Source of the DNA: Candidatus Falkowbacteria bacterium
GTDB taxonomy: Bacteria; Patescibacteriota; Patescibacteriia; Patescibacteriales; UBA12465
DNA: 64,000 nt
Assembly (NCBI GenBank): GCA_026396805.1
Contig: JAPLVZ010000009.1
Coordinates: 4,058 to 68,057, forward strand
Reading direction: 5' to 3'
Positions 37,586 to 45,444 of this stretch are shown here, piece by piece. Both the position numbers and the translations under genes were made by a program. How positions within the stretch are numbered: position 1 is the stretch's first letter; each line of letters starts with the position of its first letter. The notes beneath the pieces were generated by a model. The model saw only the letters and a program-made list of their open reading frames with translations. It did not search any database and had not been told where the DNA came from.

Positions 37586-39211
37586 ATGGGGGAAGCAATA
37601 AAGGACCTGCTTTTAAATTATGCTTCCGGTTTTAAGAATCGGGATGATTTAGAAGCCGGGAAAAGGATAATCTGCAAGCGTTATGGCTTAGCGGCCGTTC
37701 CTAATTCCGATATTCTGAAAGAGTATCGTTTTTTGTTGTCTGAAAATAAGATTGTCCAAATTCTCCCTCTGGAAAAAATATTACGCAAGCGCGCCATCAG
37801 GACTTTATCGGGGATAGCGCCGGTTGCCGTTCTGACTAAGCCCTATCCGTGTCCGGGCGCCTGCGCTTATTGCCCACACGAAAAAAATGTCCCGGCCAGC
37901 TATCTGTCTAACGAACCGGCGGTAATGCGCGCCATCCGTTGCGGCTATGATCCTTATAAACAGATCGTCTTGCGTTTGAAGGCGCTGGAAAATAACGGCC
38001 ATGAGCCGACTAAGATTGAATTGATAGTTATCGGCGGCACCTGGAGCTACCTGCCGATTAAATATAAATATTGGTATATCGTGAATTGTTTTCGAGCGGT
38101 TAATGATTTTGTAAAAGTAGGCCGGTTAGTTTTTAAGCGTCCGGGAGGAGAAGAGAAATTCAATATTGGCTTAAAATCTCCTTACGCTAAAAATTTATCT
38201 TTAAATAAATTAAAGGCCGCACTTACCAAGGAACAGAAAAAGAATGAAGGCGCCGTTTATAGCCTTATTGGCTTGACCCTGGAAACTCGGCCGGATTATA
38301 TTAATACTAAAGAAATTCTGGAAATGCGCGCCTTGGGAGCGACTCGGGTAGAGATCGGCGTCCAGGCGGTTGATGATAAGATTTTGAAATTAAATAGGCG
38401 CGGGCACGGCGTCAAGGAAATCGCGGCGGCCACTAAATTATTAAAGGAATACGGTTTTAAAGTCACTTATCATTTAATGCCGGCCTTGCCGGGCGCGACG
38501 CCAAAAAAGGATTTAGCGTTATTTAAGAAATTATTCAGCGACGAGCGCTTCCAGCCCGATCAGATTAAATTTTATCCGACTGTCGTAACCGCCGGAAGTT
38601 TATTGGCTCGTTGGTACAGCCAAGGGAAGTATCAACCTTATACTGACAAGCAACTTCAGGAGTTGATCGTGAAATGCAAAGCCATTGTTCCGCCTTATGT
38701 CAGAATAATCCGATTAATTCGGGATATCCCGGGCGAGTCGATTATCGCCGGCAATAAGATTACGAATTTACGTCAGATTCTGAAAGATAGAGGCGTAAAA
38801 TGTAATTGTATCCGTTGCCGCGAGGCCAAGGAACAAGTTATCGCTTCGGATTATAAGATTAGAGCAATAAAATATCCGTCTTCCGGAGGCCTAGAATATT
38901 TTATCAGCGCGGCCAGCCGGGACGGGAAAACTTTATACGGATTTTGCCGCCTAAGAATAGATCAGAATAGTCCGGTGGCTCCGGCTATCATCAGAGAGTT
39001 GCATGTTTATGGCGTACTAGTTTCTATCGGCGGAGCTAAAAAGGTCCAACACAGCGGACTAGGAAAAAGATTAATGAAAGAGGTGGAAGAAATCGCGGCT
39101 AAAGCCGGAGCGATTAAAATTGCCGTCATTTCCGGGGTCGGAGTAAAGGGGTATTATAAAAAGCTGGGCTATAAGGAAAAAGATACTTATATGGTCAAGA
39201 ATTTTATTTAA
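37586..39211 (+). CDS. elp3: Elp3-family radical-SAM/GNAT enzyme (tRNA U34 modification type)
   Basis: 541 aa; CPGACAYCP (CxxxCxxC) radical-SAM cluster, Elp3-type core, C-terminal GNAT (HSGLGKRLMKEVEEIA). Confidence 0.85.
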   Translation: MGEAIKDLLLNYASGFKNRDDLEAGKRIICKRYGLAAVPNSDILKEYRFLLSENKIVQILPLEKILRKRAIRTLSGIAPVAVLTKPYPCPGACAYCPHEKNVPASYLSNEPAVMRAIRCGYDPYKQIVLRLKALENNGHEPTKIELIVIGGTWSYLPIKYKYWYIVNCFRAVNDFVKVGRLVFKRPGGEEKFNIGLKSPYAKNLSLNKLKAALTKEQKKNEGAVYSLIGLTLETRPDYINTKEILEMRALGATRVEIGVQAVDDKILKLNRRGHGVKEIAAATKLLKEYGFKVTYHLMPALPGATPKKDLALFKKLFSDERFQPDQIKFYPTVVTAGSLLARWYSQGKYQPYTDKQLQELIVKCKAIVPPYVRIIRLIRDIPGESIIAGNKITNLRQILKDRGVKCNCIRCREAKEQVIASDYKIRAIKYPSSGGLEYFISAASRDGKTLYGFCRLRIDQNSPVAPAIIRELHVYGVLVSIGGAKKVQHSGLGKRLMKEVEEIAAKAGAIKIAVISGVGVKGYYKKLGYKEKDTYMVKNFI

Positions 39212-39240: not shown

Positions 39241-39269
39241 TTGGAGTTTAAGTTAGAATATGCTATAAT
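39241..39269 (+). promoter_or_regulatory. promoter of the yhhQ-like leader
   Basis: TTGGAG (39241-39246), 17-nt spacer ending TGC, TATAAT (39264-39269). Confidence 0.55.
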
Positions 39270-39344
39270 TAATATATTATGTTGATTACTAAAAATATTA
39301 CAACTTGGTCGGGATTTACTTCCGCATCTCTTAGACTCTATTAA

Positions 39345-39392
39345 CCCAGGGTGTATTTAGTAATTCTAAAGCACCCTTGGGGGTGTTTTTTT
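39345..39392 (+). terminator. leader terminator with competing antiterminator upstream of yhhQ-like gene
   Basis: Terminator CACCC(39372-76)/GGGTG(39381-85) plus U7 (39386-92). Alternative 9-bp helix CCCAGGGTG(39345-53)/CACCCTTGGG(39372-81) uses the same nucleotides. Confidence 0.6.
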
Positions 39393-39414
39393 ATTAATTA
39401 AAAACAACTTTATT

Positions 39415-40092
39415 ATGTCTTCAGATATTAAGTTTTTAGAACAAATTCCCGTGTCTCCGGAAAAGATTAGCTTCAAAATTATAATTGCTTTAACTCTTTA
39501 TTTGGTTTCGCTTTTTGCCGCCAATACATTGGGTCTAAAAATAATGCCTTTTATTTTTGGCACGCATTTGTCAGTCGCTGTTTTCTTTTTTCCGTTTGTG
39601 TTTTTGATGACCGATATCATCGGTCAGGTTTACGGCAAACCAATGGCCAGAAATTTCGTGCTGGCCGGCTTTATCAGTATTTGTTTATTCATGGTTTACT
39701 CTTTCATTTCCTTATTTGTGCCTTGGGCGCAAGAAGGCCTGAGGTTCAAAGATAGTTTTAATACGATTTTCGGCCTTTCGTTAAGAATGTCGTTAGCCTC
39801 GCTCTTAGCTTATCTGATTGCAGAATATCAGGATGTCGCGGCTTTTTTCTTTTTTAAGAAAAAATTTAATAAAAGCGCTTTTTGGCTACAATCCAATCTC
39901 TCTAACCTCTGGTCGCAACTTTTAGATACGGCTATTTTTATGCTTGTTGCTTTTGCGGGCGTATATTCTATTAAGACCATACTACTTATCGGGCTCCCCT
40001 GGTGGTTATATAAAGTCGGCATGGGATTTATCTATACCCCCTTATCTTATTTAGGTATATATCTCCTTAAATATGAAAATAAAAACATTTAA
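39415..40092 (+). CDS. yhhQ: YhhQ/VUT-family transporter (queuosine-precursor transporter family)
   Basis: Strong family pattern: FPFVFLMTDIIGQVYG, SLLAYLIAEYQDV, SNLWSQLLDTAIFMLVAF. Confidence 0.85.
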   Translation: MSSDIKFLEQIPVSPEKISFKIIIALTLYLVSLFAANTLGLKIMPFIFGTHLSVAVFFFPFVFLMTDIIGQVYGKPMARNFVLAGFISICLFMVYSFISLFVPWAQEGLRFKDSFNTIFGLSLRMSLASLLAYLIAEYQDVAAFFFFKKKFNKSAFWLQSNLSNLWSQLLDTAIFMLVAFAGVYSIKTILLIGLPWWLYKVGMGFIYTPLSYLGIYLLKYENKNI

Positions 40093-40771
40093 AACCTCGA
40101 TCTTTAAGCCGAATGAAAATTTATTATCTTTTGTTGCGAGATATTTGCAAAAGATTCCTGATAACAGCATCTTGGTCGTTACTTCTAAAATAGTCGCTCT
40201 ATCTGAAGGGCGATTTATTAATGACGCAGATGAAACAACTAAAGAGAGGATAATCAGGCAAGAAAGCGAAACAGTTTTAAAGACTAAATATGTTTATTTG
40301 ACGATTAAAGACGGAATAGTTATGGCTAACGCCGGTGTGGACGAGAGTAACGGTAACGGTTTAATAATATTATTGCCGCAAGACAGTTTTAAGGCGGCGT
40401 CAAAAATTCGTCGTCACTTTAAGAAGAAACTTCGGCTCAAAAATTTTGGCGTAATCATTACCGACAGTCGCTGTTTGCCTCTTCGCGCTGGGATTACCGG
40501 GGTAGCCTTGGGTTATGCGGGCTTTAAAGGACTAAAAAGTTATCAGGGTAAATTGGACATTTTCGGTCGGCCTTTTCAATATTCTCGCGTCGATGTGGCC
40601 GACAGCTTGGCCACGGCGGCTGTTTTTTGCATGGGTGAAGGCCAGGAAAAACAGCCGCTGGCCCTTATCAGCGAGGTCCGACTGGACTATGTTGAAAGAA
40701 TAAATAAAGATGAGTTAAAAATTGATCTGAGGGAGGATATGTATGAGCCGTTATTTAGAAAAATTAAATAA
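40073..40771 (+). CDS. CofE-like gamma-glutamyl ligase family protein (F420-0:glutamate ligase / FolC2-type fold)
   Basis: VVTSKIVALSEGR, ANAGVDESN, VIITDS, VADSLATAA motifs of the F420_ligase family; start overlaps the yhhQ-like gene by 20 nt. Confidence 0.8.
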   Translation: MKIKTFKTSIFKPNENLLSFVARYLQKIPDNSILVVTSKIVALSEGRFINDADETTKERIIRQESETVLKTKYVYLTIKDGIVMANAGVDESNGNGLIILLPQDSFKAASKIRRHFKKKLRLKNFGVIITDSRCLPLRAGITGVALGYAGFKGLKSYQGKLDIFGRPFQYSRVDVADSLATAAVFCMGEGQEKQPLALISEVRLDYVERINKDELKIDLREDMYEPLFRKIK

Positions 40772-40843
40772 TAGTTAGTTTCAATAGCTAGTTTTTGACA
40801 AAAGACTTCGTCTAAACTAAGATTAAAAGATAATATTAATAAT

Positions 40844-42088
40844 ATGAAATACGATCACTTAAAACAACAAGATCCGGCCGTTTGGGAAATAATTGAGAGA
40901 GAGGAAAAACGGCAGAATGAGGAATTGGAGCTTATTGCTTCGGAAAATTACGTTTCTCCGGCGGTTCTTGAAGCGATGGCCACGGTTTTGACCAATAAAT
41001 ACAGTGAAGGCTATGCCGGCCATCGTTATTACGGCGGCAACGCGGTTATTGACGAGATTGAACTCTTGGCGATTGAGCGGGCCAAAAAATTATTTGACGC
41101 CGAGCATGTTAACGTCCAGCCTCTGTCCGGGTCTCCGGCCAATGCCTCAGTTTATATGGCTTTTTTAAATCCTGGCGATAAGGTTTTGGGCCTAAAACTT
41201 GATCACGGCGGTCATTTATCGCACGGACATAAGGTTAATTTTTCCGGCCGCTTATATAATTTTGTCCAATATGGAGTTAATTTGGAAACCGGAATAATTG
41301 ATATGGACGAAGTCAGGGAAATCGCTCTGCGCGAGCGGCCGAAAATGATTGTCGCCGGTTTTAGCGCTTATTCCCGAGAAATTGACTGGCAGAAATTTAA
41401 GGATATCGCCGATGAGATTGGCGCGTATACGTTCGCGGATATCGCTCATATCGCGGGATTAATTGCCGCTAAGCAGATTAAGAATCCGGTGCCGATATTT
41501 GATGTCGTGTCCACGACGACGCATAAGACTTTACGCGGTCCGCGCGGAGCCATTATTATGTGCAAGGAAAAATACGCTAAGCAGATAAATAGCGCGGTTT
41601 TTCCGGGCATGCAGGGCGGTCCGCATGACCATATCACCGCGGCTAAAGCGGTGGCTTTCGGCGAAGCGCTGAAGCCGGAATTCATTGAGTATTCTAAACA
41701 GATTATAAAAAACGCTCAAGCCATGGCCCAAGAATTCATTAATCTCGGCTATCGGATAATTTCCGGGGGGACGGATAACCATTTGATGGTTCTGGACTTG
41801 ACCAGCAAGGGAACGGTCGGCAAGGAAGCGGAGAAAGCGTTAGAAAAGATAGGTATTTCCATTTCCCGCTCCACTATTCCGAATGATCCGAATCCGCCGA
41901 TGAATCCGAGCGGAATCAGGGTTGGCACGCCGGCGGTTACGACCCGAGGCATGAAAGAAGCGGAGATGAAATTAATTGTCGGCTATATCAATGAGGCCCT
42001 GGAAAATAAAACTGACGAAGGAAAGCTGGATAGCTTAAAAAAACAGGTTAAAGCTTTATGCAATAAATTTCCGATTCCGACAAAGTAA
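40844..42088 (+). CDS. glyA: serine hydroxymethyltransferase
   Basis: ELIASENY, PLP-lysine motif TTTHKTLRGPRG. Confidence 0.97.
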   Translation: MKYDHLKQQDPAVWEIIEREEKRQNEELELIASENYVSPAVLEAMATVLTNKYSEGYAGHRYYGGNAVIDEIELLAIERAKKLFDAEHVNVQPLSGSPANASVYMAFLNPGDKVLGLKLDHGGHLSHGHKVNFSGRLYNFVQYGVNLETGIIDMDEVREIALRERPKMIVAGFSAYSREIDWQKFKDIADEIGAYTFADIAHIAGLIAAKQIKNPVPIFDVVSTTTHKTLRGPRGAIIMCKEKYAKQINSAVFPGMQGGPHDHITAAKAVAFGEALKPEFIEYSKQIIKNAQAMAQEFINLGYRIISGGTDNHLMVLDLTSKGTVGKEAEKALEKIGISISRSTIPNDPNPPMNPSGIRVGTPAVTTRGMKEAEMKLIVGYINEALENKTDEGKLDSLKKQVKALCNKFPIPTK

Positions 42089-42119
42089 GAGACGAAAGTT
42101 TTAAATAGTTAATAATTAA

Positions 42120-42926
42120 ATGGTAAAAAAAATTGACGGGACGGCGATTGCTGAAAAAGTAAAAGATGTCATCGCCCAAAATATATTCAAGCTTAAAGGA
42201 CCAAGGCCGAACTTGGCCATTGTTTTAGTGGGTGAACGCGCGGATTCCCAACTCTATGTGGCCCTAAAAGAAAGAGAGGGCAAAAAGGTCGGCGTGGAAA
42301 CGCATGTCTATAAATTGCCGGTTGATATTTCCGAAGAGGAATTATTTGATGTTATCGGTTTTTTAAATAAAGACGCTTCTATCGACGGCATTCTAGTTCA
42401 GTTACCTTTACCGGAAAAATTTAATACCGATAAAGTAATCGCCGCAATTGATCCGCTTAAAGATGTGGACGGTTTTCACCCACTCCATCCCGACTATATA
42501 ATTTCTCCGGTGTCGGCGGCTATTCTGGCTTGTCTGGAAGATATAAAATTCTCCGGCGCCGGTAAATCGGCTTGCGTCTTATATAACTCCGAAGTCTTTG
42601 GTCAGAGTATTAAAGATATTTTAGAGAAAAAAGGATTAAAAGTCAGCTTGAAAGATAATCCCGAGAAAGCGGATTTGTTAGTAACGGCTTTAGGTGAACC
42701 GCATAAGATAAAAAAAGAAATGATTAAAGACGGCGCGGTGATAATTGATATTGGGATTACCAAACAAGACGGTAAGGTTCTGGGCGATGTGGATTTTGAA
42801 GATATTAAAGATAAGGCGAGTTATATTACTCCGGTACCTGGCGGTATTGGACCGATGACTATCGCTTTTTTATTTAAGAATGTCTGGGAAATATTTCAAA
42901 GGCGGAAAAATGGTAATTTTAGCTAA
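42120..42926 (+). CDS. folD: bifunctional methylenetetrahydrofolate dehydrogenase/cyclohydrolase
   Basis: LVGERADSQLYV, ILVQLPLP, VDGFHP, PVPGGIGPMT motifs. Confidence 0.95.
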   Translation: MVKKIDGTAIAEKVKDVIAQNIFKLKGPRPNLAIVLVGERADSQLYVALKEREGKKVGVETHVYKLPVDISEEELFDVIGFLNKDASIDGILVQLPLPEKFNTDKVIAAIDPLKDVDGFHPLHPDYIISPVSAAILACLEDIKFSGAGKSACVLYNSEVFGQSIKDILEKKGLKVSLKDNPEKADLLVTALGEPHKIKKEMIKDGAVIIDIGITKQDGKVLGDVDFEDIKDKASYITPVPGGIGPMTIAFLFKNVWEIFQRRKNGNFS

Positions 42927-44754: not shown

Positions 44755-45444
44755 ATGAAACCGGAACAAGCGGAAAAATTATTAAATTTAGTGAAGCGGA
44801 ATTACCAGGAGATTGCCGCTAGTTTTGACGCGACCAGAAAAAAGGAAATCTGGCCGAAAATAAGAGAACTGGCGGACGCGGTTCTTGACGGCGACTGCGT
44901 CCTTGATGCCGGTTGCGGTAACGGGCGATTACTAGAAGCTTTAAAAAATAAAAAAATAAAATACCTCGGCCTGGATAATAGCGCCGAGCTGATTAAGGCG
45001 GCCAGCAAGAATTATCCGCTCCATGAATTCAGGGAAGCGGACATTTTGGATTTAGCTAATGTGCCTGAAAAAGATTTTGATCATATTTTTTGTTTGGCGG
45101 TTTGGCAGCATATCCCCGGGGAAGAATTAAGAGTGAAATTTTTAAAGAACCTGGCCGCCAAAATAAAACCTTCCGGCCGGATTATTATCAGCGTTTGGAA
45201 TCTTGGGCGCCTGCCAAAATACCGGAAAATGATTTTGAAAAATTATTGGCGGAAATTTATCGGTCGGTATGAGCTTGAAGTCCGCGACCTTATTTTTTCT
45301 TGGAAGAATTCTTCGGGTCAGTCTGTCAGCGAGCGTTATTACCACGTATTTACGCTAAGGGAAATAAAGCGCTTAAGCGCGATTGCCGGCTTGAAAATAA
45401 TTGAAATAAATCGGGATAGGCATAATATTTGGGTGCGTTATTGA
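44755..45444 (+). CDS. class I SAM-dependent methyltransferase
   Basis: Motif I VLDAGCGNGRLL, post-I LGLDNS, motif II/III spacing typical. Confidence 0.8.
   Translation: MKPEQAEKLLNLVKRNYQEIAASFDATRKKEIWPKIRELADAVLDGDCVLDAGCGNGRLLEALKNKKIKYLGLDNSAELIKAASKNYPLHEFREADILDLANVPEKDFDHIFCLAVWQHIPGEELRVKFLKNLAAKIKPSGRIIISVWNLGRLPKYRKMILKNYWRKFIGRYELEVRDLIFSWKNSSGQSVSERYYHVFTLREIKRLSAIAGLKIIEINRDRHNIWVRY

Follow-up and report, generated by a model that had tools for sequence, protein, structure and literature searches.

A YhhQ-family transporter gene overlapping a FolC2-type ligase gene in Patescibacteria: a possible folate salvage-and-retention module behind a putative peptide attenuator

In the FolT-FolC clusters of Firmicutes, a folate energy-coupling factor (ECF) substrate component stands beside folylpolyglutamate synthase, often behind a tetrahydrofolate (THF) riboswitch. 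Most genomes of the Candidate Phyla Radiation (CPR)/Patescibacteria keep folate-using enzymes and have no folate synthesis pathway; a 2025 survey recorded folA, glyA or folD in 90.8% of CPR genomes and no folate transporter homologues there (PMC11974145). Here, we analyze a 64,000-nucleotide (nt) stretch of a Candidatus Falkowbacteria genome (GenBank contig JAPLVZ010000009.1; the whole stretch is called the window below), in which the gene for a Vut_1/YhhQ-family membrane transporter overlaps that for a gamma-glutamyl ligase of the CofE fold. We propose that this pair is a folate importer coupled to polyglutamylation, that is, a salvage-and-retention module, a reading that we consider moderately probable.

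Both members of the pair have described relatives. Within COG1738/PF02592, Escherichia coli YhhQ imports preQ0/preQ1 and its Chlamydia trachomatis homologue imports queuine (PMC5372724; PMC11130926). The window transporter resembles these YhhQ/QPTR proteins in Pfam family, size, multi-pass topology and conserved core residues, and it likewise has no ECF energizing module nearby. It differs from them in forming a separate clade with clade-specific substitutions, in its linkage, which is with FolC2 or FolC and not with tgt, que genes or preQ1 riboswitches, and in its proposed substrate, folate. For the ligase, the precedent is FolC2, a concept that dates from 2007: the chlamydial protein (CT611, COG1478 family) complements an E. 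coli folC mutant (PMC1971073; PMC4161248). The two proteins share the PF01996 fold and family, TIGR04132 as the best curated model over the full length, a genome without canonical FolC or F420 genes, and clustering with folate genes. Unlike the chlamydial protein, the window ligase scores 211 bits against a cutoff of 350, which suggests a related group and not the chlamydial equivalog; and whereas Chlamydia makes folate de novo and carries folC2 in a folB-folKP-folA cluster, the window genome has no such pathway and pairs the ligase with a transporter. Set beside FolT-FolC, the locus again has an importer next to a glutamylating enzyme, both under a leader that appears to be folate related, but the proposed importer is a Vut_1 protein rather than an ECF substrate component, the enzyme has the CofE fold rather than the Mur-ligase fold, and the leader is a predicted peptide attenuator rather than a riboswitch. 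We found no paper linking COG1738/PF02592 with folC, folylpolyglutamate synthase, FolC2/COG1478 or folate, and none describing a folate-related leader peptide.

The pair consists of the following two genes.

39415-40092, + strand: Vut_1/YhhQ-family membrane transporter of the CofE-linked clade, 225 amino acids (aa) (PF02592, TIGR00697); proposed folate/pteridine importer.
40073-40771, + strand: CofE-fold gamma-glutamyl ligase of the FolC2 type, 232 aa (PF01996, TIGR04132); proposed folylpolyglutamate synthase.

The ligase ATG (40073-40075) precedes the transporter TAA (40090-40092), so that the 20-nt overlap described in the original prediction is confirmed. No Shine-Dalgarno-like sequence was seen 5' of the ligase ATG, which would fit translational coupling with the transporter. 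In a profile search, the transporter matched PF02592 (Vut_1) at 125.7 bits (gathering score, 27.2) and the ligase matched PF01996 (F420_ligase) at 131.6 bits. The transporter has five to six hydrophobic segments, and no PDB entry matched it by sequence. A prediction of the transporter-ligase complex, made with both alignments and run without controls, returned a score of 0.00, which counts neither for nor against such a complex.

The genome that carries the window (827.6 kb in 17 contigs, the window being contig 6; its closest relatives are labeled Falkowbacteria or Patescibacteria) is 90% complete, and all gene absences reported for it are subject to that completeness. Its folate users are GlyA, FolD, Fmt and ThyX, the last encoded beside a dCMP deaminase. 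A search for folate biosynthesis, which the original prediction had proposed, did not find folA, folB or folP, and neither dihydrofolate reductase (DHFR) nor formyltetrahydrofolate synthetase (FTHFS) was found; tblastn likewise found no ThyA, FolA, FolB or DHFR-like gene. Canonical folC was not found, with weak Mur-ligase matches only, and neither was the BT1 folate transporter. What is present is a closed THF cycle, leading from serine to methylene-THF and from there to dTMP (ThyX) and formyl-Met-tRNA (FolD, Fmt), with no synthesis route. A cell with such a cycle and neither synthesis nor DHFR would have to import folate and would benefit from retaining it. Because no DHFR was found and thymidylate is made via ThyX, the imported folate is probably reduced. 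As had been suspected, an F420 pathway is not evident: cofD was found neither in this genome nor in two genomes of the same genus, and the window genome has one PF01996 gene only.

The assignment of that gene to FolC2 rather than to CofE rests on profile scores. Its best curated model is TIGR04132 ("putative folate metabolism gamma-glutamate ligase," FolC2 type), with 211.4 bits over positions 1-237 of 241. On the CofE model TIGR01916 it reaches 136.9 bits, below the cutoff of 180.65 and 75 bits under TIGR04132. By these scores we file it as a FolC2 relative and not as a member of the TIGR04132 equivalog. Six other CPR copies (distant transporter-linked, FolB-linked, RimK-linked and unlinked) behave likewise, with 198-265 bits on TIGR04132. 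The nearest solved structure is the Archaeoglobus fulgidus CofE (98 bits), with which the core motifs TSK..AEGR, NAG.D.SN, ITD and MGEG align; these motifs are invariant across 37 relatives. Among the 4025 homologues found, some close ones are named dihydrofolate synthase/folylpolyglutamate synthase (DHFS/FPGS) by public sources. The idea that a CofE-like protein substitutes here for FolC is borne out to the extent that TIGR04132 is the best model, the CofE score is under its cutoff, and folC was not found; clustering with true F420 ligases, which would have told against it, is not what the profile scores indicate (211 versus 137 bits).

Other forms of PF01996 occur elsewhere in CPR. One, beside an archaeal-type S-adenosylmethionine (SAM) synthetase, is a true CofE by score (L134:2420-3148 in genome G173; TIGR01916, 238.5 bits; cutoff, 180.65), and another is a 391-aa form with an insertion of about 150 aa within the domain (L135:2468-3643, G294). 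Both types sit in CPR organisms not known to make F420. In G117, a genome without Vut_1, two FolC2-type genes that are 56% and 60% identical to the window ligase stand in tandem with a 4-nt overlap (L133:3049-4493).

The pairing of transporter and ligase extends well beyond the window. A scan with the ligase alignment, using one genome per species, gave more than 573 relatives, of which we took the best 80, all of them from CPR and 54-84% identical; upstream neighbors were counted at the 75 of these loci with at least 900 nt upstream. Among these nearest ligase homologues, a Vut_1 ortholog (55-90% identical) lies directly upstream on the same strand at 44 of the 75 loci, and the two genes overlap by 35, 26, 20, 11 or 4 nt at 37 of the 44. 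Given this recurrence, the 20-nt overlap in the window is not a chance event. At least eight more loci have a gene of about 175 aa wedged between the transporter and the ligase, overlapping both, whose product scores above the gathering thresholds for RibD_C (39-62 bits) and DHFR_1 (31-50 bits). At four loci, FolB (83 bits) replaces the transporter directly upstream of the ligase, and core folate genes are present at 37 of the 80 loci. In an alternative setting (12-16 loci), the pair follows nusG-rplK and precedes a dCMP deaminase, a MazG-like gene, canonical folA and thyA. Across loci labeled Falkow-, Nomura-, Magasanik-, Uhr-, Colwell-, Moran- and Buchananbacteria and Paceibacterota, the pair is kept while the other neighbors change. 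No tgt or que gene stands beside the linked transporter at any of the 80 loci; other CPR Vut_1 genes do adjoin tgt.

These neighborhood statistics also divide the gene-order argument of the original prediction, which had read transporter, ligase, glyA and folD as one sequence of import, retention and use. What is conserved is the pair of transporter and ligase, and glyA-folD is not part of that unit. The neighbors glyA and folD occur at 14 and 13 of the 80 loci, in close relatives that retain the whole Elp3-to-GDH synteny, and we dropped their adjacency as a main argument on account of this lineage specificity.

The genes inserted into or accompanying the pair are of interest in their own right. 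The wedge reductases measure 173-234 aa (L020:4166-4690, L033:7483-8004, L066:7460-8011, L071:7465-8004, L086:1982-2506 and L113:3112-3816). They are also found at loci with a canonical folA and so are probably not ordinary DHFRs; they may reduce an oxidized imported pteridine. A RimK-like ATP-grasp ligase accompanies the pair or the ligase at 10 loci (L009:6179-7186, L136:3130-4122 and eight others), with weak matches to the RimK family, MptN, CofF and the ATP-grasp part of cyanophycin synthetase, and it may serve as another amino-acid ligase for the tail of the same cofactor. In G155, which lacks Vut_1, the gene for a predicted membrane protein of 231 aa, unmatched in Pfam, lies between the RimK-like and DHFR-like genes and downstream of a gene of the FolC2 type (L136:4210-4905); its product is a candidate alternative importer.

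To place the transporter, we built a tree from E. coli YhhQ, the linked Vut_1 genes and 40 Vut_1 genes sampled from an even set of 301 Patescibacteria genomes. The CofE-linked transporters form one clade (Shimodaira-Hasegawa-like approximate likelihood ratio test [SH-aLRT], 100). In its sister clade (support, 99), distant pairs are still adjacent, at 34-37% identity to the window transporter and 38-42% to the window ligase, and one of them (in G169) bears the DHFR-like wedge. The four tgt-adjacent Vut_1 genes were placed in other clades, and three genomes (G242, G163 and G229) each have one linked-clade and one canonical Vut_1. Residues N37, K42, D67, G74, R124, A128, S129, W157, S163, D171, F175, A179, K200 and Y212 are common to the window transporter and the canonical clade, and clade-specific substitutions, such as T164N, G167S and Y197W (window numbering), occur at otherwise conserved positions. 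On the E. coli-type preQ0/preQ1 equivalog NF008406, the window transporter reaches 57 bits, against a cutoff of 252.

The same tree connects the transporter to the other folate glutamylase. Within a 68-row clade (support, 99), the next relatives adjoin canonical FolC: in G281 and G007, Vut_1 lies directly upstream of a FolC (TIGR01499, 291 and 293 bits), the two genes being 1 nt apart in the former genome and overlapping by 26 nt in the latter. In G060, a transporter of this clade lies directly downstream of glyA. By gene context, then, one transporter lineage partners with either of two unrelated predicted folate glutamylases, which is the classical signature of non-orthologous displacement.

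We also counted these genes across the even sample, where kinship among the 301 genomes makes the figures descriptive rather than a test. Vut_1 is present in 39 of the 301 genomes, PF01996 in 72, FolC in 54 and Tgt in 263 (87%), and FolC occurs together with a strong PF01996 match in a single genome. A FolC or CofE-family gene is present in each of the 15 genomes whose Vut_1 falls in the 68-row clade, compared with 11 of the 24 other Vut_1 genomes and 122 of 301 overall. Nine of the 15 have a FolC2-type gene (adjacent in seven), five have FolC, and one has PF01996 fragments. Two genomes with a Vut_1 of this clade, G169 (100% complete) and G090, gave no Tgt match. Co-occurrence with Tgt was considered as a discriminator and dropped, since 13 of the 15 clade genomes against a background of 87% carries little information.

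A further line of evidence lies upstream of the pair, in a 203-nt leader with the following elements.

39241-39269, + strand: promoter-like site, TTGGAG-17 nt-TATAAT, with TG one base 5' of the -10 element (extended -10), read from the sequence.
39279-39344, + strand: leader upstream open reading frame (uORF) of 21 codons, MLITKNITTWSGFTSASLRLY, with T-W-S-[GS]-F at residues 9-13; 37 distinct copies.
39345-39353, + strand: antiterminator segment CCCAGGGTG, directly 3' of the uORF stop and complementary to the 5' arm and loop of the terminator.
39368-39395, + strand: intrinsic terminator with stem AAAGCACCC / GGGTGTTTT, loop TTGG and then a U run; top terminator-like scan match, present in the minimum-free-energy fold.

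The promoter-like site is absent from the list given by a consensus scan, as its -35 hexamer matches at 3 of 6 positions only. The terminator ends about 20 nt 5' of the transporter ATG. A permissive Rfam scan of the leader found no known riboswitch, including preQ1 and THF, and gave sub-threshold, terminator-driven matches only. The leader folds in two alternative ways, the centroid containing the antiterminator pairing and the minimum-free-energy structure the terminator; the antiterminator duplex (-12.1 kcal/mol) is equal to or more stable than the terminator hairpin (-6.3 kcal/mol).

The uORF encodes the motif MLxxKxIxTWS[GS]F, found in 37 distinct copies at related loci and in other CPR genomes, with T-W-S-[GS]-F fixed. 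Over the five motif codons, minor alleles number 13, 1 and 75 at first, second and third positions. Variation confined almost entirely to third positions shows selection on the peptide. About 26 of the 37 leaders have the antiterminator/terminator layout with covarying sequences, and the median distance from the uORF stop to the antiterminator segment is 2.5 nt. In many of the relatives, a TATAAT-like box ends 7-10 nt 5' of the uORF ATG and there is no Shine-Dalgarno sequence, which suggests that the uORF is probably leaderless or nearly so. The arrangement recalls the attenuators trpL, hisL and pheL and the arrest peptide TnaC in its short uORF, its mutually exclusive antiterminator and terminator and its predicted control by ribosome position. 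In contrast to them, the uORF has no run of regulatory codons and no repeated codon but the invariant T-W-S-[GS]-F motif, it is probably leaderless, and the leader has three RNA segments only, so that the untranslated state predicts read-through.

The TWS[GS]F leader precedes Vut-CofE, FolB-CofE, DHFR-like-CofE and CofE alone. A search with the leader pattern gave matches in 6 of the 301 genomes versus 3 for a reversed control, and the matches fit the consensus beyond the pattern itself. One lies before a FolB-FolK operon in G095 (L130), and three lie before small open reading frames in G043, G251 and G029 (L128, L129 and L131). The leader, by its occurrence before CofE, FolB-CofE and FolB-FolK operons, marks a folate regulon and provides an independent tie between the transporter and folate. 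The G095 operon itself (L130:600-2355) encodes FolB-FolK, a 2-oxoglutarate- and Fe(II)-dependent oxygenase and a 479-aa protein without a Pfam match behind a TWSSF leader, and it may be a partial or unusual pterin branch.

Taken together, these comparisons suggest how the module could work. The gene identities and the genome's gene content, the overlap, the recurrent linkage, the clades, the exchange of FolC for FolC2 and the leader held in common are observations; the transporter's substrate, the ligase's activity and the leader's signal we infer from sequence, the substrate wholly from gene context. The transporter would have diverged from queuosine-precursor transporters to import folate or a closely related pteridine or pteroate, probably in a reduced form in this genome. 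The coupled FolC2-type folylpolyglutamate synthase would add gamma-glutamates and so trap the cofactor, and polyglutamylation would fit it for GlyA, FolD, Fmt and ThyX and raise its affinity for them. Genomes that use ThyA would add DHFR and sometimes the DHFR-like wedge. At the leader, a ribosome finishing the short uORF would cover the antiterminator segment and let the terminator form; where no such ribosome is present, or the leader is incompletely translated, the antiterminator would form and the operon would be transcribed. One could go further and see here a CPR folate regulon built from recruited parts, namely, a YhhQ-derived importer, a CofE-derived polyglutamylase and a leaderless TWSGF leader that senses folate status directly. 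Leaderless initiation would need formylated initiator tRNA and hence 10-formyl-THF, so that, when folate runs short, the uORF would be translated less and the antiterminator would open. We put forward this wider regulon only tentatively and consider it rather unlikely.

Several observations weigh against a folate module, and the most pertinent of them concern queuosine. The window genome has Tgt, QueA and QueH, whereas QueC, QueF and QueG were not found. A cell with Tgt, QueA and QueH and no QueC or QueF must import preQ1, and as the genome has a single Vut_1, the ordinary annotation would explain the presence of the gene. The transporter passes the cutoff of TIGR00697, "queuosine precursor transporter" (123.4 versus 50.95 bits), and keeps the family-wide core residues. 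It could thus be a preQ1 importer that feeds Tgt and merely shares an operon with a FolC2-type ligase, or it could carry both preQ1 and a pteridine; the two compounds have a 2-amino-4-oxopyrimidine ring in common, which would make dual specificity chemically plausible, and shifts of specificity are documented in the family (preQ0/preQ1 in E. coli versus queuine in Chlamydia; PMC11130926). We regard such a preQ1 or dual role as unlikely but far from negligible. It sits poorly with the lack of tgt/que adjacency at any of the 80 loci, unlike other CPR Vut_1 genes, and with the separate clade, the second, canonical Vut_1 of G242, G163 and G229 and the low NF008406 score (57 bits; cutoff, 252). Nor would it account for FolC in place of FolC2 beside sister transporters, a DHFR-like gene inserted within the pair, or a leader in common with folB-folK and without a preQ1 riboswitch. 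Moreover, 224 of the 263 Tgt-bearing genomes have no Vut_1 at all, from which it follows that most CPR bacteria feed Tgt without one. The suggestion of the original prediction that this YhhQ homologue might not be a queuosine-precursor transporter therefore stands as to clade and tgt linkage and is weakened by the need of Tgt, QueA and QueH for preQ1 in a genome with one Vut_1. Similarly, a canonical folC plus a complete queuosine salvage set had been named as evidence to the contrary; folC was not found, but the salvage set Tgt, QueA and QueH is present.

The remaining contrary points concern the ligase, the tree and the sampling. The ligase is below the TIGR04132 cutoff (211.4 versus 350 bits), and it is improbable, though conceivable, that the pair handles some other carboxylate cofactor, either salvaging F420-0/FO with CofE-type glutamylation or employing the ligase not as a polyglutamylase but as a dihydrofolate synthase that acts on pteroate or dihydropteroate taken up from outside. 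Fold and core motifs are indeed those of CofE, the wedge reductase has a small score advantage on RibD_C (a riboflavin/FO-branch pyrimidine reductase) over DHFR_1, and some genomes have FolB and FolK together with the ligase or under this leader, as would fit a partial pterin branch in which a DHFS step is required. However, neither the window genome nor the two same-genus genomes yielded cofD, the ligase is under the CofE cutoff while a true-CofE-like protein exists elsewhere in CPR, the recurrent neighbors of the ligase all belong to folate or thymidylate metabolism, the exchange with canonical FolC speaks for a folate as substrate, and dihydropteroate would itself need to be imported, as FolP was not found. 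The Vut_1 tree comes from a quick search and is unrooted with long branches, and the match between clade and context is imperfect, in that a FolC-adjacent Vut_1 of G041 (L098) groups with tgt-adjacent members. The linkage figure of 44 of 75 describes the 80 nearest ligase homologues, and the kinship of the sampled genomes means that the counts overstate independence. About 44 of the 301 genomes have a FolC2-type gene, most of them without any Vut_1, so the pair is typical of a subgroup only and other importers must exist. This last point, along with the lineage-specific glyA-folD adjacency and the compactness of CPR genomes, where overlapping genes are common, would also be expected if the adjacency were without functional meaning, an inherited syntenic block of one CPR lineage whose overlap is a by-product of genome compaction. 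We think this very improbable, given that the pair persists while other neighbors change across many CPR lineages, that the distant type persists at 34-42% identity, that the insertions into the pair are folate related, and that FolC, an analogous enzyme, is the partner of sister transporters. The reading we prefer remains that of a folate importer coupled to polyglutamylation, and on this the interpretation offered in the original prediction is supported by several independent comparative lines.

Downstream of the pair, the window continues with the following features.

40795-40823, + strand: promoter-like site, TTGACA-17 nt-TAAGAT (consensus scan, 10/12 matches).
40844-42088, + strand: glyA, serine hydroxymethyltransferase, tetrahydrofolate-using (PF00464, 539.8 bits; NF000586, 606.9 bits; cutoff, 335).
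42120-42926, + strand: folD, methylene-THF dehydrogenase/methenyl-THF cyclohydrolase (PF02882, 125.6 bits; PF00763, 121 bits).

All four open reading frames, from the transporter to folD, are on the + strand in the positions and order originally described. FolD equivalog models give 168-226 bits on the last of them, each under its own cutoff. The promoter-like site falls within the 72 nt that separate glyA from the ligase gene, and glyA-folD may also be transcribed on their own from this predicted promoter. The same conserved block includes a bacterial Elp3 (37586-39211; TIGR01211, 510 bits) and a class I SAM methyltransferase (44755-45444). Elsewhere in the genome, a 191-aa open reading frame (G000:C1:27600-28049; L132:980-1555, minus strand) matches ECF_trnsprt at 18.9 bits, below the threshold of 30.7. 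It is kept in same-genus genomes and adjoins an Fe-hydrogenase-like gene, and it could be the missing preQ1 importer or an importer of another vitamin.

If the pair is a folate salvage-and-retention module, a branch of the YhhQ family would be the missing folate importer in a sizeable subgroup of CPR, and the routine annotation of such loci as YhhQ and "F420 ligase" would be misleading on both counts. It would represent a clear substrate switch between two GTP-derived heterocycles within one transporter family and would mean that folate metabolism had recruited the CofE fold a second time, independently. It would also provide testable clones for the study of vitamin exchange between these ultra-small symbionts and their hosts.

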